A DNA stretch of 64,000 nt from a bacterium. Its GTDB lineage: Bacteria; UBA8248. A program made the position numbers and the translations under genes. The stretch is taken from NCBI GenBank assembly GCA_965213625.1, contig CBDBZU010000004.1, forward strand, positions 3,264,001-3,328,000, read 5' to 3'. The stretch's first letter is position 1. Each line of letters begins with the position of its first letter. The notes under the pieces are model-generated. The model worked only from the letters and a program-made list of their open reading frames with translations. It searched no databases and had not been told where the DNA came from. Shown here in pieces: positions 3,108 to 17,942 of the stretch.

Positions 3108-4499
3108 TCAGGCTGGAACTCCCTCCGCTTTGGCCGCAAGTTCCATTACCTCGGAAATACTGCTCAGGTTTTCTAAATTCCTGACCCGCTCGATGATCAA
3201 ACCACCCGTTTCCTTTTCGAGCACTGGGGCAGTCATCACGTAGAATCGTTCGATCAACTCACCCCACGTCAACGGATTTCGAGAATCCCCCTTGGGATAA
3301 TCCTGATGCGCTTCGAAAACTCCGCGATCAGTCTCAATTTCGACATTCGCTTGCCATTTATCCGGAAATTCCTTTTCCATTTCGGCATCACCGTAGCATT
3401 CAATCTTCTTGATAATTGAGGAGTAAACCTGAGAGCGGAGGAAATCGTCTGCATACTCATCTAGCCCAGCAGCGCGCCTAAGAATCGCAACAGCCACGGC
3501 ATACTGAAGGCTGAATTGAGCATCAACGATATTTTGCGGATTCGTTTTCATATCATAGGGTTCGATGACTACCATTACGCTCGTCTCCGGAACCCGTACT
3601 TTTACTCGTCTGATTTCCTCTGGCTGAATATCATGCTTTTTGCAAACATCGATTGTGGCGTCAATCGAAGCGTGGTTATAACGACAACAAGCGTAGGGCT
3701 TTATCGCGCTCTCACAGATTTCCCAATACTCACCGAAGTGCTCCACCACATACTCAGGTGTATAGTCATCACTATGGCCATGCAAAAATCCCGTTTTCCC
3801 GCCCAAAATATCTTCCGGTCCCGTATAACCTTCCTGGGCTAAATAGGCGGCGATGATACCGCTATGCGCCGCCCATCCCGGGTGAAACCTCTTCGTCCAA
3901 GCGCCGTTATCGAGATATTGCATCGAACCAGCCGCCTGGCTGCCCGAGATGCCCATTGCATTTGAAGTGGCCTCGACCGAAAGCCCCAAAAGCTTCGATG
4001 CCGTGATCGAGGAGGCGAAAGTGCCGCATGTTCCCGTGGGATGGAAACCACGCTCATAGTGGCTCGTTGGATTCACGGCATTTCCGATGCGATTGGTGAC
4101 TTCATATCCTGCTACGATAGCGGCGATTACTCGCTTCGGATCAGGCTGATGCGCCTCGGCAACGGCTAACGTGCTTGGCATGACGCTGACTGCAGGATGC
4201 AGGCTTGAGCGCGTTGTCACATCATCCATTTCCGTGGCGTGGCTCACCCCCCCGTTCACCAAAGCGGCATGAGGGGCATCAGTTTTCAAACCCGAGCCTA
4301 TGATGGTGCAAGGCCCACCATGGGGAGCGCGCTTTTGGGCAAAATTATGAAACACACGAGAACTGGCCGCCTCCAATGCTCTCAATGTAACGCCGAGGTG
4401 ATCGAGCAAAAAATACTTTGCGCGGTCCCTGGCCTCATCGGACAGAGAACCATAAGTAATGGCGTGAACGTGTTCGACAAGCATTCGGCTGATATTCAT
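3108..4499 (-). CDS. MmgE/PrpD family protein (copy 1)
   Basis: HATEMDD, HP, GFHPTG, TKRFHPG, KPYACC, AQFS motifs; ATG at 4499 preceded by GGAG. Confidence 0.92.
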   Translation of the reverse strand: MNISRMLVEHVHAITYGSLSDEARDRAKYFLLDHLGVTLRALEAASSRVFHNFAQKRAPHGGPCTIIGSGLKTDAPHAALVNGGVSHATEMDDVTTRSSLHPAVSVMPSTLAVAEAHQPDPKRVIAAIVAGYEVTNRIGNAVNPTSHYERGFHPTGTCGTFASSITASKLLGLSVEATSNAMGISGSQAAGSMQYLDNGAWTKRFHPGWAAHSGIIAAYLAQEGYTGPEDILGGKTGFLHGHSDDYTPEYVVEHFGEYWEICESAIKPYACCRYNHASIDATIDVCKKHDIQPEEIRRVKVRVPETSVMVVIEPYDMKTNPQNIVDAQFSLQYAVAVAILRRAAGLDEYADDFLRSQVYSSIIKKIECYGDAEMEKEFPDKWQANVEIETDRGVFEAHQDYPKGDSRNPLTWGELIERFYVMTAPVLEKETGGLIIERVRNLENLSSISEVMELAAKAEGVPA

Positions 4500-4733
4500 T
4501 CGAACTTCTCCTTCCACTAGAAGCCAGTTTGTGATTTTGAGACTTTGGCCCACTGCTGTACAGGCAATTTTTACACTTCAAGCAATAATACCAGAACTTA
4601 TTGTATTCTGCCTCAGCGCAAGAGTGGATAAACCGCTCCAAGCCTTTGGGGCAAGGATGAATTTGTCATATGGTATTGCTTGCAGATACAATTCTCCATC
4701 ACTTGTACACTCTCATCATTTTGGAGACAGAAC

Positions 4734-7770: not shown

Positions 7771-9114
7771 TCAGCCGGCCCCTCCCACCGCATGCTCGAA
7801 AACCATCATCGGCTCAAAATCCGCAAGCTTAATTTGAGGCAACGAAACGCCCGCATACGCTCCCGCCGCATGGAATTTCTCGAGCAGCTCCGTATCACTC
7901 AGCGGCTTTCCCGGCATCCCGCGGGCGGCGCCGCAGAACCCGGCCGCGGTGCGGCCATCGCTCAGGGTCAGCGTGAGGCGGATGCTTTCGGGATATTTCC
8001 CGCGCATCTCCTCGGTGGAAAGGTCCATCGCGCGCTTTACACTCACCCGCGCCATGAGGGCCTCCATCTCCGGGCTGACCCCGGCTCCGGGTTCGAGATC
8101 CTCAAACCGGACCTTGCCGTTAAGCGCGGCGCAGGCCAGCGCATATGGCAGGCTGAACTGCATCTCCTGCGGGGTGGCCGGATTCGGAAAGACGAGACTC
8201 CCGTAGACGAGCTCCGGTACTTCGGCGTGTATCCCGGCCACCTCATCAGCACTTGCGCCGAGTTCCGCCATGAGTCCGTTCATCTGTTCGATGGCCGAAA
8301 GCGCTGCCGAGCAGACCGGATTCGTCTTGAACAAGAGGCCCGGGTCGCACAGGCGCCAGCGCAGGCCGATGGTTTTGAGTTCGGACTCGACGGCTTCGCC
8401 CCGGTTCAGCAGCTTCAGGAAACCCCGGTTGTCCTCGAACGCGGCTTCCGGTCCTGTAAGCCCGGCCTGCGCAGCCCGGGCGAACGTAACGGCCCGACGC
8501 GCGGTCTCGCCGACGAGCATCGGCTTGGCGTCCGTACCGAGCACGGCCTTTCCCCCGCCGGAAGCGGCTGCCGCCAGGCCGATAGCGCTCGTCATCGCGT
8601 CCTCATCGAGCCCCAGCAGGCATCCGGCGGCGACGGTCGCGCCCGTGAGGCCGAAGGTGATCGTGCTCCACCAGCCATGGAAGTAGTGGTCGTGTGTGCA
8701 AAGATCGGCGAGGACGTACGCCACCTCGGAACCCGCGACGAAGGCGCGGCGAAGCGAATCAGCGCCCGTTTCGAGTTCCTGCGCCAGGGCCATGGCGGCG
8801 GGCAGCACCACCGCCGAGCCGTGCATGATCCCAGTGTAGGAGGTATCGTCGAAATCCCAGACGTGCGCCGCCATTCCGTTGATGAGCGCCGCGGCTTCCG
8901 GGTCCGCTCTCCCGCCGGTCGCCAGCGTCGCCTTCCCTTCCCCGCGCGTAGTCACTGCAGCCAGGGCGCGCACGGATGGATGCGCGCCCCCCGCGAGCAT
9001 GACGCCCAGGGTGTCGAGCATGGCCCTGTTTGCAACCGTCCTGACTGCGGAATCAACCCGTTCCAGACCGCAGGCGAACCTCGCGAACCGCCGGGCTATT
9101 GTGGGTGTTTTCAT
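7771..9114 (-). CDS. MmgE/PrpD family protein (copy 2, divergent)
   Basis: AALINGMAAHVWDFDDT, MQFSLPY; starts 21 bp after the grdB stop. Confidence 0.9.
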   Translation of the reverse strand: MKTPTIARRFARFACGLERVDSAVRTVANRAMLDTLGVMLAGGAHPSVRALAAVTTRGEGKATLATGGRADPEAAALINGMAAHVWDFDDTSYTGIMHGSAVVLPAAMALAQELETGADSLRRAFVAGSEVAYVLADLCTHDHYFHGWWSTITFGLTGATVAAGCLLGLDEDAMTSAIGLAAAASGGGKAVLGTDAKPMLVGETARRAVTFARAAQAGLTGPEAAFEDNRGFLKLLNRGEAVESELKTIGLRWRLCDPGLLFKTNPVCSAALSAIEQMNGLMAELGASADEVAGIHAEVPELVYGSLVFPNPATPQEMQFSLPYALACAALNGKVRFEDLEPGAGVSPEMEALMARVSVKRAMDLSTEEMRGKYPESIRLTLTLSDGRTAAGFCGAARGMPGKPLSDTELLEKFHAAGAYAGVSLPQIKLADFEPMMVFEHAVGGAG

Positions 9115-9135: not shown

Positions 9136-10452
9136 CTAGTACTCGAACACCGTGGGGCCGTCCACTTTTTCGGTCAGCGCTGAAGCGGCGGCGCGTGCTG
9201 CGCCCAGGCGCCATTCACGCTCGGCCTCGGGCGTCCGGGAGGGGTCGCCGAATGGATGATGAAAATGCCCGGCGCGGTTGTTGACGATGCGGTTGACCCC
9301 GATGTCACGCGCCACGTCCGGCAGGCATGTGACGATGACGGTGGGGATGCCCTCCCGCTCGAGCGCTCTCGCCAGCGCAGCCCCGCTGCGCGTGCCGGTG
9401 CCTCACGTTGCGGGGAGCACGACGCCCTCCACCCCGGTCTTTTTGAGTTCCGCGGCCCAGGCGCGGCCGATGCCGTCCATCTCGGCGAAGGCGCCGCCGT
9501 TCCCGCAGGTGCTGTGGAAATCATCGTGGAGCTCGGCGATCTCGCCCTCCTCCGCAAGCCGCCGGAAGGCGTCCACGGCGAGCATGCGGTCCGGCTCCTC
9601 GTTCACGAACACGGTGTTGAAGCCCCCATGAATCGAGATGAACGTGCCGCCCGGCAGGGCGTCTTTCCCCTTAAAGGAGTACGTGGCCCAGTTCTCATTT
9701 CTCGAGCCGGCGAAGCGGTCCGGGTTGCCGGGGGGCACCATGCCGCCTTCGGATACGATGGCGATGCGCGCTTTTTTAAGATCGGCGATCGCCTCGGGCG
9801 GCGCAATCTCTTCCAGAACGGGAACGTCGAGTTCCGTCTCGTAGGGCTCGCCCTTGATTTTTCGTAAAACCATGTCGACGGCGCGCTGCGAAGTCGGTAG
9901 TTCGGCGACTTCGTTGTAGCGGACCCCCCGAGGCAGGTATCCCTCCTCGGCCGCATTGCCGATCTCCTCGCCCCGGGCAAGCTTGAGTCCAAGGCGGGCG
10001 GCGGCTTCCAGGGCTTCCTCCATCCCGACGGCCGAATCTGCGGCGGGTACGGTGTGGACACCGGTACCGGCAGCGGGAAAGCCCGGATTCTCGGGGTGCA
10101 TGGCAGTGACGACGGGAACGCTCGCCTCATGCGCTGCGCGGCATACGGCGGCGCAGGCCAGCCCGAAGCGCCCGGCGTTGAAAGCGGGCCCGGCGAGAAC
10201 GAGATCAGGAGAATATTCGAGAATCCTAGCGAGAGCCTCTGCGGCGCAGTCTTCCTCGTTTTCGGCGATAAGGCCGTCCCCCGCAAAGACGGTGCCGACC
10301 ACTTCGGCGTCTTCCCCCAGAATTTTATCGAGCAAAACGCCGGGGCCAACCGGGCCTGTCTGCGCAGATACAGGATGATCGCTCTTCTCCTCGCCCCCGA
10401 CGCCTGCAAAGAACTGGTTCAAGTAGTGAACGACCCGAAGTTTACCGCTCAT
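9136..10452 (-). CDS. grdB: Glycine/sarcosine/betaine reductase-family selenoprotein B (438 aa, Sec350)
   Basis: VVHYLNQFFAGVGGEEK, AGPAFNAGRFG; in-frame TGA at 9403-9405 continues as GTGTRSGAALARALEREGIPTV..NRIV..HPFGDP..PTVFEY, matching the GrdB C-terminus. Substrate subfamily uncertain. Confidence 0.93.
9375..9391 (-). promoter_or_regulatory. SECIS-like hairpin of grdB
   Basis: GCGCAGC-GGG-GCTGCGC stem-loop separated from the UGA by 11 nt. Confidence 0.7.
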
Positions 10453-10547: not shown

Positions 10548-11831
10548 TCAATAATCCTTGCCCACCATGTTGTTGATGTCCTTCGCCCACTCGCTGGCGT
10601 AGTAGTCGCTGTCGGCCAGGGTGAAGGCCTCGCGGACGTTGTGTCTCTTGCCGTTGTAGAACTCGACGATTTCCGAGCCGATGACCCGCTCCACCGCCGG
10701 GGCGGCGATGCGCTCCCCCTGCATTCCCTTGGATACAATGGCGTCGGCCTCGGGCACGTGAAAGACGAGCGGGAACTCGCCTGAGCCCGGCCGGCCCACC
10801 TCGTAGATTATCGGAACGGCGCTCACGCCCATCTGCTCGAGCGCCTGGACGGTGAGCCAGTAGTCCACCGTGGAGTTGCCGCCGCCCTCAAAGGCGAGAA
10901 CCGCGCCTTCGGCCTTCAGGAGCGCGGCCAGCTTGGCCACGTATTGCGCCGAGCGCTCCTTGAGCGCCTGGTTGTCGTGGTGGCCGCGCGTGATGATCAT
11001 GCCGGCGAAATTAAGGTCCACACCGTGGCGGCGGTATAGCTCGTAGATGAGCGGTAAGTTGCAGTGCAGGTAGGTCGGCACCTTCTGCTGCGTCTTGTAG
11101 TTCGCCCCCACCACCGCGCCGTCGAGCATCTCGTTCGGGTGAATGAGGGTGGGAAGCGAATCCCCCAGATTCTTGCCGTACATGAAGGTCTGCACCATAG
11201 ACGCCTGGTGCATCACCTGATCGACAAAGACAACCCGGGGCAAATCGGGCGCGACGTCGCCGATCTCGAACGTCTCGACGCTCACAGGTTTGAGTTCCGC
11301 CGTGTGCGCGGCCAGCCGGGACGCGATTTTGAGCGTCGCCAGGCGCACGGCGTCGTCATGCGCTTCGTTCGAGGCGCCGGCCAAAGGCTCGTAGCAGGCG
11401 ACGAGGTTCGCGGTCTCTGAATTCGTGCAGTGCACGGCCCCTGGACCGGACATATCGATGATGCCTTCGCGAAAGCTCATGATGCCCGTCATGGGCCCCA
11501 GGAAATGGGTGGTGCTGATGACGCACATACCGGCCAGCTTGTGGGTGCGGCCCTGGCCGGCCGTCTTCGCCGGACCGAGGAATCCCGGAAAAGCGCAGGA
11601 GCGACCGCTTACCTTGTAGAGAGGCTCCACCGCGTCCAGCACGTTGGTGATCCGCACCGAATCGCCCGGCATGGCGGCGTCAAAGCGCACGTCCTCGAGA
11701 CCGCCGTCTTCGAGCGCAAGCTCGCGCAACTCATCGGCATCCACGGTGAGCGTACCTTCTTTGTACTCAAAGCGCGCACCGATGATGATTTTCGATACGG
11801 GGAATAACCCCATCTCCAGTCGCATGGACAT
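10548..11831 (-). CDS. grdE: Reductase complex component B proprotein subunit (GrdE/GrdG/GrdI family)
   Basis: PGDSVRI..VLDAVEP..KV, GQGRTH.L.G, GIIDMSGPGA, PTLIHPNEMLDGA, KERSA, EGGGN. Confidence 0.9.
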   Translation of the reverse strand: MSMRLEMGLFPVSKIIIGARFEYKEGTLTVDADELRELALEDGGLEDVRFDAAMPGDSVRITNVLDAVEPLYKVSGRSCAFPGFLGPAKTAGQGRTHKLAGMCVISTTHFLGPMTGIMSFREGIIDMSGPGAVHCTNSETANLVACYEPLAGASNEAHDDAVRLATLKIASRLAAHTAELKPVSVETFEIGDVAPDLPRVVFVDQVMHQASMVQTFMYGKNLGDSLPTLIHPNEMLDGAVVGANYKTQQKVPTYLHCNLPLIYELYRRHGVDLNFAGMIITRGHHDNQALKERSAQYVAKLAALLKAEGAVLAFEGGGNSTVDYWLTVQALEQMGVSAVPIIYEVGRPGSGEFPLVFHVPEADAIVSKGMQGERIAAPAVERVIGSEIVEFYNGKRHNVREAFTLADSDYYASEWAKDINNMVGKDY

Positions 11832-11842
11832 CGTCGCCTCCC

Positions 11843-12295
11843 CTATCCGGCCGTGCGCATCGAGGCCAGGTCGCTTTCTATCTGCTCCAGATCGAGCACC
11901 ATTTCCATCATGAGGAGCTTTTCGGCGTACAGATTCTCTGGAACCTGGGCGCGCACCTTCTCTTCTAGAATGTGAAAAACGGGGAGTCCCAACGAGACTC
12001 CCGCCAGGGGCCCGGCCCAGCTGGGGTCCCCGGTGGTCAGCGTTTCGGCTGCGAGCCGAAGGCCTTCACCGGGCATTCCCAACACCACCATCAGGTTCTC
12101 CGACCCCACTTCATCGGCAATCGATTTGATGGCGGCCTGGTTCTCCAGGTCCATGGCGCCAGCGGAGGTTCAGACGAAACACTCCGTCTTCTGGAACACG
12201 ACCTCCGCACCCGCCGCCTCAATACACTCGGCAATCAGCGGACCGGGTACGCCGTCGCGCTCACCCAGCGCGATCACCTTCTTGCCTTTGAACAT
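11843..12295 (-). CDS. grdA: Glycine/sarcosine/betaine reductase selenoprotein A (150 aa, Sec42)
   Basis: [27 protein letters not shown](12170-12172)[11 protein letters not shown]..[12 protein letters not shown]; GGAGG RBS; downstream CCTGG-AGAA-CCAGG hairpin. Confidence 0.95.
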
Positions 12296-12328: not shown

Positions 12329-13750
12329 TCACGCTTCTATCAGCACCGAAGCCCCGTCGGCCTGCTGGGACATCCGGCCTAAAAACAGACTCCCTTTGGC
12401 GAGGATCATTGTACTCGCAAGGCTCCCCGCCCGCATCCGCTCCAGCGCGTGTCCGAGAAAGGGAACGCCTGCGGGAATATGCCCCTGCGTCGGCGCGAAT
12501 CCGGGCATCCCGTGCGCCTCGATGAAAGCCGGAATCTCCTCGCGGGCGATCTCCCCGCCCATCACCGCCATGGCGGCCAGCATCTTGTAATTCGTAGCCG
12601 CCACGTCTCCCGCCCCCGCGGGCAGCATGACTTCTGGATTATGGAGTTCGACGGCGTACTTATCGACGCTGGTCAGCTTGCGCCCGGCGCGGGCCAGCGG
12701 GTCGCGCACCATAGCCTCCGCCAGCCCTTGCGGCGTGGATGGCCTGCCCGCCGCGTGGCGTCCGGCTATCTCGAGATTCACGCGAGGGCCGTCCCCTGAA
12801 TTTTTCGTGAGAAAAAACGCGACCCCACCCAGTACGTCTTCCAGTACGGGCATTCCCTTTTCCAGATGGTAGTACGCCTTCATCCCGAGCTTCGCCATCG
12901 AACCGCCCCCGACGACGACGGCGTTCTCGACGACACCCGCCTGAATAAGCGCCGCCGCATGCACCAGAGCGTACACCGGCGCCGCGCAGAAAGACTTCAC
13001 GTCCACGCCGGCCGCATTGGCGCAGCCCGCCATCTCGGCGATCGCCTTTGCAAGATTGCCGCCGCCGCGATTGTAGCGATCTCCAATAGCTTCCTCCGAA
13101 CAACTGATCACGTACTCTACCTGTTCGGGCGCGATGCCCACCCCCACGAGCAACCGCCTGAGCGCATAAGCGCCGCTCGCCTTGGCCGAGAGGTTTTCCA
13201 ACAATATTCGGGCGTCCAGGGATTCATCGGCGTCATGATCGCGGCGTACGCACCCGATCATGTCCCCGTCCTGAAACAGCGGCAGGGCCTCTCCTCGCTC
13301 GATGCGTTCAATAATGTCTTCTTGTTTGTAATCCTTCGGAGGATTTTCTTTTTCGAGAAGCGCGTCGGCGGATTCAGAACCCACGCCGCGCGGCCCATCA
13401 CGCTCCTTATCGAGCATTATCAACCCGAACTGATCCGCCGCTTCGAGCAAGGCATAGAAAGAATCCTGCGGGAGGATTTCCCCGAATTGGCTCTCAAGCG
13501 AAGCGCCTGCGGGGGAGTTCTCGTACCACGGAGTTGGAATTTCGTTCAGATTTTCGGGCTGCAGATTGCCGATGAACGCCTGGTTCGGCGGGTAGCCGAC
13601 CACTTCATCAAAAGAGCGCAGGTCGTTGAACGAGTCGCCCGGCGCCTGATTGTTCCTGAAAGCCTCGCGCCAGGGCTTCGAGCCGTAGCGAACCAGATCT
13701 GGAACATGCACGAGAACGTTCGCAGCAGCACGCAGGTACGCCATCATCAC
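12329..13750 (-). CDS. grdC: Glycine reductase complex component C beta subunit (FabH-like)
   Basis: HVPDLVRYGSKP, YPPNQAFIGN, CSEEAIGDRYNRGGGNLAKAIAE, FCAAP, GFAPTQGHIP, GSLFLGRM. Confidence 0.93.
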   Translation of the reverse strand: MMMAYLRAAANVLVHVPDLVRYGSKPWREAFRNNQAPGDSFNDLRSFDEVVGYPPNQAFIGNLQPENLNEIPTPWYENSPAGASLESQFGEILPQDSFYALLEAADQFGLIMLDKERDGPRGVGSESADALLEKENPPKDYKQEDIIERIERGEALPLFQDGDMIGCVRRDHDADESLDARILLENLSAKASGAYALRRLLVGVGIAPEQVEYVISCSEEAIGDRYNRGGGNLAKAIAEMAGCANAAGVDVKSFCAAPVYALVHAAALIQAGVVENAVVVGGGSMAKLGMKAYYHLEKGMPVLEDVLGGVAFFLTKNSGDGPRVNLEIAGRHAAGRPSTPQGLAEAMVRDPLARAGRKLTSVDKYAVELHNPEVMLPAGAGDVAATNYKMLAAMAVMGGEIAREEIPAFIEAHGMPGFAPTQGHIPAGVPFLGHALERMRAGSLASTMILAKGSLFLGRMSQQADGASVLIEA

Positions 13751-16541: not shown

Positions 16542-17942
16542 TTAGACGGGACTCGGTTCCCGCACCGGCTCCGCCAGCATGGCCGTGAGGGAGGCGACGT
16601 CCTCCACCTCATCCAGCTGCCGCCAGGCGTCCCAGGCGGCCTGGGCTTTTTCTTCGGTGAGGCCGGCGGCGCATTCCAGGAACTTTTCCCGGAGTTCGAG
16701 ATTGGTGATCGGGTTTTCGATGTGTCCGCGCGCGCGGGGGAAAAAGCGGGTGAGTTCGCGCCCGTCTTTCAGTTTCACCCAGACCCCGGCCGCTTCGGTT
16801 TCGGGGTCCTCACGCGCCATGTCTTCATCGAGCTCGAACGCAACGCGCTTTTGGAGAGCGGCTATCTCTGGCCGCTGTACGCTGTCTTCCTCGAACTGGC
16901 GGATGCCGACCTTGCGGTCCACGAGGGCGGAGGCGATGCAGAACGGCATGGAGAATTTTCCCTCCAGGCCCGTGGTCGCCTCCTTGTAGCGCAGCACTTT
17001 GAGCGTCATGGTCGAGGCGCGCGCGCCCAGGGCCGCCACGTCCGAGACCGCGATGTCTTCGCTCTTCACCAGGTCGAGCATGGCGTCGATGCCCGGATGC
17101 GTCATCGCGCAGCAGGGGTGGAGCTTCACGCAGACGCCCTCCTCAACATCCCAAGGCCGCCCCCACGTGCCGACCGCGCTCTCCCAGTCCGCGAATTCAT
17201 GCGCGGTGGGTCCGATTTCCTCTGCCGCCATGGCCGACGTGAAGCCTGTCTCCAGCGTATCCGCCGCCGCCGTGAAGCCGTCTTCGGCCAGTTTCGCCGC
17301 GACGAGTCCCGCCCGTGCGGACTGGCCCGCGTGAAATGGCTTCGTCATCGTGCCGAAGTTCGACACCAGCCCCGCCGAGCCGCTCGCCCCCAGGCTCAAT
17401 GCGTTTCGCGTCTGCTCCTCATCCAGTTCCAGCAGATACGCGCTTGCGCCCGCCACGCCGACCGAGCCGAGCGTGGCCGTGGCGTGAAAGCCCCGGCGGT
17501 AGTGTTTGGGGTTCACTGCGCGGCCCAGGACGTGCAAGAGCTCGAAACCGATCGTGTAGGCCTCGAGAACCTTTGCGCCCCCGATTCCCCTTTCCTCCGC
17601 CAGTGCGATGAGGGCAGGAACCAGGGTGACGCTCGGGTGACCCAGCATCACGAAATCCACGTCGTCATAATCAAGCGCATGGCCCGCCGTTCCGTTCACA
17701 AAGGCGGCCCAGGAGGCGCTCGTACGCTCCTCCGTGCCGATCAGGCGCGCTGCGGGAACGCCACCCTCCGAGACCGCCAGCCGGTGCGCCAGCCGCGCGC
17801 AGTCATCGTCCCGGCCCGCCAGATTCACGCCCAGCGTATCGAGCACGGCGTTTCGCGCCTGCGCGCGTGCCGCCTCGCCGATGTCAGAGGCGTGAACCGC
17901 CGCGATTCGCTTCGCCAGTTCCCTGGTGGCCTGATATGTCAT
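16542..17942 (-). CDS. MmgE/PrpD family protein (copy 3)
   Basis: NGTAGHALDYDD, GHPS, GFHAT, NFGTMTKPFHAG, KLHPCC, KFSMPF. Confidence 0.93.
   Translation of the reverse strand: MTYQATRELAKRIAAVHASDIGEAARAQARNAVLDTLGVNLAGRDDDCARLAHRLAVSEGGVPAARLIGTEERTSASWAAFVNGTAGHALDYDDVDFVMLGHPSVTLVPALIALAEERGIGGAKVLEAYTIGFELLHVLGRAVNPKHYRRGFHATATLGSVGVAGASAYLLELDEEQTRNALSLGASGSAGLVSNFGTMTKPFHAGQSARAGLVAAKLAEDGFTAAADTLETGFTSAMAAEEIGPTAHEFADWESAVGTWGRPWDVEEGVCVKLHPCCAMTHPGIDAMLDLVKSEDIAVSDVAALGARASTMTLKVLRYKEATTGLEGKFSMPFCIASALVDRKVGIRQFEEDSVQRPEIAALQKRVAFELDEDMAREDPETEAAGVWVKLKDGRELTRFFPRARGHIENPITNLELREKFLECAAGLTEEKAQAAWDAWRQLDEVEDVASLTAMLAEPVREPSPV

Follow-up and report, generated by a model that had tools for sequence, protein, structure and literature searches.

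A grdB-like selenoprotein gene without either UxxCxxC cysteine in a candidate glycine-reductase-type operon of a UBA8248 bacterium

Selenoenzymes of the glycine reductase family raise two questions when the residues that usually accompany their selenium are missing, namely whether the in-frame UGA codon is still read as selenocysteine (Sec) and which chemistry the altered protein could perform. Both are posed by a grdB-like gene, encoding the Sec subunit of a protein B, in a stretch of 64,000 nucleotides from a UBA8248 bacterium (assembly GCA_965213625.1, contig CBDBZU010000004.1, positions 3,264,001 to 3,328,000), which is referred to as the window and to which all plain coordinates apply. 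The gene is located on the minus strand at 9136-10452 and comprises 438 codons followed by the stop codon TAG (9136-9138). Its frame contains a single in-frame TGA (9403-9405), corresponding to position 350, and an open frame of 88 residues beyond it, as had been proposed in the initial annotation and was confirmed by read-through on this strand. The sequence around the codon reads ...VVLPAT-U-G-T-G-T-R-S-GAALA..., in which GGC ACC GGC ACG CGC AGC (9385-9402, minus strand) encodes G351-T352-G353-T354-R355-S356. The protein consequently departs from the motif UxxCxxC, which passages of PMC6778437 and PMC13188914, citing Wagner 1999, state for the characterised GrdB, GrdF and GrdH proteins, by carrying G353 and S356 in place of both cysteines.

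On sequence evidence, the gene is a genuine selenoprotein gene with Sec350. It is the final grd gene of a minus-strand operon of the order grdC-grdA-grdE'-grdB', which is interpreted with reasonable confidence as a glycine-reductase-type selenoenzyme operon whose protein B belongs to a distinct, conserved and uncharacterised branch and would act on a substrate that is not bound as a Schiff base.

Decoding of the in-frame UGA

The assignment of Sec350 is based on the read-through frame, the family matches of its product, the retention of the TGA codon, selection on the tail, covariation in a hairpin and the presence of a Sec machinery. The product is a full-length member of the glycine/betaine/sarcosine/D-proline reductase selenoprotein B superfamily, matching PF07355 with 397.2 bits (cut-off 22) and TIGR01918 with 413.6 bits (cut-off 65.45), and the latter match spans residues 6-437 and hence crosses the TGA. 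The codon is retained in every homologue found, lying inside the match in 35 of 35 matches from 41 related genomes and in 50 of 50 matches from 51 genomes of the phylum. The ratio of nonsynonymous to synonymous substitution rates (dN/dS) of the 88 codons behind the TGA amounts to 0.02-0.16 in seven comparable ortholog pairs and in six of them does not exceed that of the 349 codons in front of it, indicating that the tail is under purifying selection. In addition, the genome encodes SelA, SelB and SelD, all of which score above the NCBIfam cut-offs, as well as tRNA-Sec. The predicted set of Sec features of the superfamily, comprising the in-frame UGA at the conserved site, a selenocysteine insertion sequence (SECIS) element and the Sec machinery, is thereby complete.

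The SECIS-like hairpin, which the initial annotation had placed 11 nt past the UGA, is indeed present at 9375-9391 (minus strand) and consists of a perfect 7-bp stem (9385-9391 paired with 9375-9381) and a GGG loop. In this G+C-rich DNA the single sequence folds no better than shuffled versions of it (z = -0.26, with 79 of 200 shuffles folding as well), and Rfam families gave no match on the region at E values up to 1. The element is supported by its conservation with compensatory changes and not by the single-sequence fold: across 30 distinct sequences, standard pairs occupy every one of the 210 pair cells and the loop reads GGN, while two of the stem pairs vary on both sides (G-C in 26 and A-U in 4 sequences; C-G in 20, U-G in 4 and U-A in 6). 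One of the compensatory changes entails the replacement of Ala by Thr.

Gene callers truncate the gene at the TGA, and the entries of most relatives in databases reach no further than about residue 349, as would be expected if translation really ended there, or if the codon stemmed from faulty sequencing, and the frame behind it were a relic. The probability of this explanation is nevertheless close to nil in view of the conserved downstream codons, the TGA retained across homologues, the compensatory stem, the encoded Sec machinery and the concordance of independent assemblies. Contigs from two public runs equal the stretch with 0 differences and are possibly themselves the source of the assembly; a 908-nt contig with 94% identity, which comes from a different study, extends across the motif and has no listed difference inside it, with 64 further differences beyond those listed. 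The two findings by which the initial annotation would have been overturned did not materialise: instead of TGC at the two codons in question, which would have pointed to an assembly error, UGTGTRS occurs in all intact orthologous loci (see below), and instead of homologues that stop at the UGA and lose the downstream frame, a retained TGA and a constrained tail were encountered. An assembly error or a real stop was consequently rejected.

Transcript libraries and other selenoprotein genes provide some additional observations. One metatranscriptome library (run X21) contains a contig of 226 nt (window 9220-9445), 93% identical, that spans the UGA of a relative; contigs of the RNA and metagenome runs indicate the presence of relatives and are no proof of transcription. 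The selD gene (C4:1518852-1519814) has an in-frame TGA, and selenophosphate synthetase is therefore probably a selenoprotein itself. In-frame TGA codons also appear upon read-through of the short PrdB-like genes L002 (C4:754651-755040), L003 (C4:1299266-1299661) and L004 (C4:1105001-1105303), which are located away from any grd operon and display the motifs P-V-U-P-L-C-[MN]-R-S and P-A-U-G-L-C-N-R-S, with the first Cys present and Ser at the second position.

The Sec-site motif and the partner subunit

The motif U-G-T-G-T-R-S with retained Sec, as first noticed in the window, is fixed in 32 of 32 intact orthologous loci of 56-100% identity, some of which may be one genome reached through two collections. 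In locus L186 (G300:C200) the sequence diverges after U-G-T-G (RATPKR...), with residue 357 as the last one matched, possibly owing to a frameshift, an assembly break or decay of the copy.

A tally of motif variants, which had been suggested along with the initial annotation, was made from DNA, since protein-database entries mostly end at or before the Sec site (among the best 150 representatives, four cross it and the rest mostly do not reach beyond it). Both sets of 80 loci were ranked by likeness to the query, and their frequencies are biased accordingly. The species-genome collection yielded 71 UGTCTRC, 1 UGSCTRC, 4 UGTGTRS, 2 UGSGTRS and 2 UGTGTRC, the UGTGTRS loci being three orthologues and one Dehalococcoidia metagenome-assembled genome (MAG) and the UGSGTRS loci belonging to Thermodesulfobacteriota MAGs. 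The best metagenome loci comprised 68 UGTCTRC, 1 UGSCTRC, 5 UG[TS]DTRC, 3 UGTGTRS, 1 UGSGTRS and 2 UGTGTRC. The view that UGTCTRC is the usual form is borne out by these numbers, and this canonical form predominates in Bacillota. Further forms are UGTSTRS, which represents a second paralogue in two related genomes, UGTCNRC and UGTSTRC, while FarB, the Sec subunit of fluoroacetate reductase, has UGTSSRG or UGTSSRC. Judged from the variants collected, the family motif is best expressed as U-G-[TS]-[CGSD]-x-R-[CSG]. Four short proteins of Synergistota adjoining farE/farB (L169, L172, L174 and L175) carry Cys for Sec (C-G-T-S-[TS]-R-C), and their match to the family model is confined to about positions 183-421.

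In three maximum-likelihood trees of 70, 52 and 50 rows, from which near-identical sequences had been dropped at an 85% cut, the UGTGTRS and UGSGTRS rows occupy one side of a branch. For the 50-row tree the motif columns were removed, and the fragments P0003, P0090, P0106 and P0127 as well as the duplicate L137 were left out. Besides the window orthologues, this side of the branch holds a paralogue of 47% identity that occurs in three genomes of the same genus, and proteins of Thermodesulfobacteriota and Dehalococcoidia. UG[TS]GTRS may be regarded as the mark of a candidate subfamily shared by Nitrospinota-labelled relatives, Thermodesulfobacteriota and Dehalococcoidia, with relatives occurring in marine and sponge-associated metagenomes. 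A second clade, which is starred and apart from the window clade in the best trees, is made up of FarB together with the UGTSTRS paralogues; a tree that forces the two clades together nevertheless stands in the approximately unbiased (AU) test (p = 0.2). The trees are therefore compatible with a single loss of the cysteines as well as with independent losses in the FarB and window clades.

Regarding precedence, a Sec-containing protein B without these cysteines is already in print in the form of FarB/FarE, while the UG[TS]GTRS clade is new according to the literature found. No paper describing this clade was found in searches of the literature apart from supplements; such sequences may be contained in the full GrdBE tree of PMC9751293 (Fig. 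S6) or in the alignments that underlie PMC6778437 and PMC10838667. The main text of PMC10839748, which deals with Nitrospinota genomes, contains none of the terms 'grd', 'selen' or 'betaine'.

The second subunit of protein B is encoded by the grdE-like gene at 10548-11831 (minus strand), whose product of 427 amino acids, GrdE', matches PF09338 with 354.9 bits. In Clostridioides difficile, the pyruvoyl group of GrdE derives from Cys242, according to a passage of PMC9908766, and the alignment identifies this residue as the Cys in G-N-C-V-S-A-C, number 242 in four Peptostreptococcaceae proteins. In GrdE' the aligned residue is Tyr245 (GANYKTQ; 11097-11099, minus strand). This position lies outside the region addressed by the initial annotation and is judged more telling than the Sec-site motif. 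Among 94 partner proteins read, in one of which the site was not located, the G-N-C site is present in 64, each of which stands beside UG[TS]CTRC; the partners of double-Cys-less GrdB proteins, by contrast, lack it in 22 of 22 cases (16 UGTGTRS, 5 UGSGTRS and 1 UGTSTRS). Two of two further metagenome partners agree. The G-N-C site is also absent from FarE in 8 of 8 loci and from the partners of GrdH-like proteins. At the five UG[TS]DTRC loci (L190, L196, L201, L204 and L205), where Asp replaces the first Cys, the pyruvoyl site G-N-C is retained in all four partners found.

The state of the partner bears directly on the idea that the gene simply encodes a standard GrdB that still serves in the reduction of glycine, its motif having drifted neutrally. 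Such an assignment could draw on a full-length match to TIGR01917 (glycine reductase GrdB) and on the co-encoded components A and C, namely grdA (11843-12295, minus strand), with 150 codons, a canonical C-F-V-U and its own UGA at 12170-12172, and grdC (component C, beta subunit; 12329-13750, minus strand), which matches NF040746 with 587 bits against a cut-off of 450 bits. The TIGR01917 score of 394.9 bits, however, remains below the cut-off of 602.2, the partner lacks the Cys242 of glycine reductase, and a motif that is fixed in all orthologous loci shows no drift. A passage of PMC9751293 gives the diagnostic GrdB motif as CGD ... GPxF[NF]AGRYG ... AHGGxD[QTAP] ... RV[IL]PxD ... TxGNxTxV; in the window protein the first block, YxNx6GGE, is present and five of six blocks are absent. 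The diagnostic motif was found in 0 of 25 UGTGTRS rows as opposed to 67 of 86 UGTCTRC rows. Altogether, an ordinary glycine-reducing GrdB is highly unlikely, and the GrdE'/GrdB' pair probably reduces a compound other than glycine.

A substrate without Schiff-base activation

In the proposed glycine-reductase-type system with its separate branch of protein B, the lack of a pyruvoyl carbonyl would imply that a primary or secondary amine cannot be activated as a Schiff base, and the substrate would therefore more likely be acetate, or a similar acid, with a leaving group on the alpha carbon. Quaternary ammonium, sulfonium and halide are candidates for this group. The selenolate of Sec350 would attack the alpha carbon and displace the leaving group, whereupon the carboxymethyl or related group would move to Sec42 of GrdA and be resolved by Cys39 of the same protein. 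GrdC would then accept the acyl group and GrdA would be re-reduced by the thioredoxin system, while the selenium of GrdB' would keep its redox state throughout. Carboxymethyl transfer to GrdA is the textbook scheme reportedly laid out by Andreesen in 2004, and the GrdB selenol need not change its redox state in it. This transfer is also summarised in passages of PMC13188914 and PMC10838667, and the literature ascribes to the CxxC cysteines a protection of Sec against oxidation. Because the selenium of GrdB' would not be oxidised in the proposed scheme, these cysteines might be dispensable, as in FarB. The different redox chemistry that the initial annotation had derived from their loss is accordingly no more than a possibility.

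In the window lineage, Cys316 (STCGNG; 9505-9507, minus strand) and Cys376 (VTCLP; 9325-9327, minus strand) may have assumed a protective role. An AlphaFold2 model computed from a 51-sequence alignment (predicted local distance difference test, pLDDT, 92.6) places Sec350 after strand 343-347 and before helix 351-366, with positions 353 and 356 approximately one and two turns along this helix, an arrangement that would fit the geometry expected of a UxxC/CxxC redox relay. Cys316, Sec350 and Cys376 come 1-3 residues behind the ends of strands 311-314, 343-347 and 371-375, respectively, with one or two residues in the case of the cysteines. Sequence search gave no match to a solved structure, and Foldseek against the PDB returned weak, periplasmic-binding-protein-like whole-chain matches with a template modelling (TM) score of about 0.2. 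Compensating cysteines had been suggested at the outset, and this suggestion holds in so far as Cys316 and Cys376 are present in 32 of 32 intact orthologous loci and Cys316 is specific to the lineage: after removal of redundancy, 7 of 8 variant rows have it, versus 0 of 53 canonical rows. P0106, a metagenomic sequence of 273 amino acids that groups with the window clade, possesses Thr for Sec (T-G-T-G-T-R-S) and neither Cys316 nor Cys376, which could reflect either an error or a relative without catalytic function.

The genome contains one full GRDB match, one Gly_reductase match and one GRDA match, and component C appears incomplete, with GrdC present and GrdD not found. The best score for GrdD (NF040747) in the genome was 20.2 bits, on a single PlsX-family (PF02504) locus; GrdD was found in 0 of 41 genomes (the own genome and 40 relatives), 24 of which have GrdC, and in none of four further genomes that carry the variant (G042-G045), compared with 561 bits in a Synergistota control genome (G118). 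In the textbook enzyme, GrdD forms acetyl phosphate. No trxA or trxB gene was recognised in the annotated part of the window (1230-24355).

Several of these results weigh against the proposed interpretation. The missing GrdD implies that the final steps of the scheme may differ. Pyruvoyl loss alone is an insufficient explanation for the loss of CxxC, as the converse of the paired loss fails: betaine-type proteins, and some others of the same class, keep UGTCTRC beside an unprocessed partner. With respect to a protective role of Cys316 and Cys376, these residues and Sec350 would lie at one edge of a beta-alpha-beta-alpha-beta unit, but their closeness is deduced from the topology of the model only. 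Moreover, the suggestion of compensating cysteines fails for L103, L188 and L242, distant members of the UGTGTRS group in which both residues are missing, and is weakened for Cys376, since canonical GrdB proteins have a Cys one column before it in 87% of rows. The subfamily envisaged in the initial annotation does group across phyla in the three trees, yet the Shimodaira-Hasegawa-like approximate likelihood ratio test (SH-aLRT) assigns its branch values of 94, 90 and 89, below the 95 needed for the star of the tool. Finally, neighbouring genes vary between loci and offer no common hint at the substrate: the window has short-chain dehydrogenase/reductase (SDR) and MmgE/PrpD genes, L052 has cyclase, acyl-CoA dehydrogenase, enolase-family and FAA hydrolase genes, and L103 has Mo-hydroxylase, MFS and amidase genes. 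The three MmgE/PrpD-family paralogues of the window lie within 15 kb (3108-4553, 7771-9114 and 16542-17942, all on the minus strand); one of them directly follows grdB', an adjacency retained in the ortholog locus L053 and not in L052 or L054.

A more far-reaching proposal, which is tentative and carries a small though appreciable probability, combines the UG[TS]GTRS motif, the pyruvoyl-less partner and the GrdD-less operon into a separate class of selenoenzymes. In this class, selenium would act on a non-amine or onium substrate either without a neighbouring thiol or, in the window lineage, with the relocated Cys316 and Cys376, by which protein B would resolve itself in the manner of proline reductase, and the product would be released without acetyl phosphate. 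If true, a C-X bond reductase derived from glycine reductase would exist in marine and sponge-associated bacteria beyond the classical Stickland fermenters.

For the glycine-reductase-type operon with its distinct protein B, the implications extend to the annotation of the whole family. UxxCxxC serves in print as a test for the functionality of GrdB copies, a copy without it being judged a likely pseudogene in a passage of PMC6778437. The combination of Sec, SECIS element and strong purifying selection in the absence of either Cys shows that UxxCxxC is not required by the family. In the partners read, loss of both cysteines is always paired with loss of the pyruvoyl precursor, which amounts to a sequence rule that would separate amine-activating proteins B from those acting on other leaving groups. 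A candidate reductase of this kind is indicated in Nitrospinota-labelled, Thermodesulfobacteriota and Dehalococcoidia genomes, and the lineage constitutes a natural experiment on the role of the cysteines neighbouring selenium.

Comparison with characterised reductases

The glycine reductase GrdB/GrdE of Peptoclostridium acidaminophilum and Clostridioides difficile resembles the window pair in fold family, in length and in about 43-46% sequence identity. The position of Sec after a strand-ending ...(A/S)T motif is shared as well, and both pairs are co-encoded with GrdA (CxxU) and GrdC. In contrast, UGTCTRC in GrdB and the Gly-Asn-Cys242 site in GrdE have no counterpart in the window. Sarcosine reductase does not fit either, since GrdB' scores 412.2 bits against a cut-off of 800 for NF040794 (GrdF) and the GrdF motif published in PMC9751293 (IHGGYDR ... 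TTGTGT) is absent. GrdE', for its part, remains under the cut-off for GrdG.

Betaine reductase GrdH/GrdI has an unprocessed partner without Cys at the cleavage site, as in the window, and a passage of PMC10838667 notes that its substrate needs no Schiff base. The operon could encode a betaine-type reductase of quaternary amines in which the protective cysteines were merely lost, and this view is favoured by the GrdI-type proteins beside the GrdH-like L157 and L158, which are unprocessed like GrdE', as well as by the relatives in marine and sponge-associated metagenomes. Betaines are common in such settings. The match to NF040795 (GrdH), however, attains 354.9 bits against a cut-off of 775 and is the lowest among the three full-length models, the GrdH-like proteins retain UGTCTRC and constitute a separate starred clade, and a BCCT-type transporter was not seen in the annotated loci. 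A betaine-type enzyme is therefore rather unlikely, although it retains a noticeable share of the probability.

The closest parallel to the postulated non-Schiff-base protein B is the fluoroacetate reductase FarB/FarE of Cloacibacillus porcorum MFA1, for which passages of PMC10838667 describe a farB without the conserved CxxC and a farE without the pyruvoyl-forming cysteines. These features, together with Sec, were verified in 8 of 8 FarE-adjacent loci. Since the same paired losses are found in the window and the AU test tolerates a joint tree, the window pair might be a FarB/FarE orthologue that reduces fluoroacetate. This is nonetheless improbable: GrdE' reaches 127.1 bits on NF053623 (FarE) against a cut-off of 675, the Sec site reads UGTSSR[GC] in FarB and UGTGTRS in the window, the partner site reads WRYWEPNY in FarE and GANYKTQ in GrdE', and the best trees group FarB with the UGTSTRS paralogues rather than with the window clade. 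Neither a transporter nor a radical-SAM gene resembling farA/farC was seen beside the window operon, and GrdD is present in the FarB host genomes (control G118) in contrast to the window genome. What the two systems have in common is a protein B that keeps Sec while dispensing with CxxC, a partner devoid of the processing Cys, and a presumed hand-over to GrdA.

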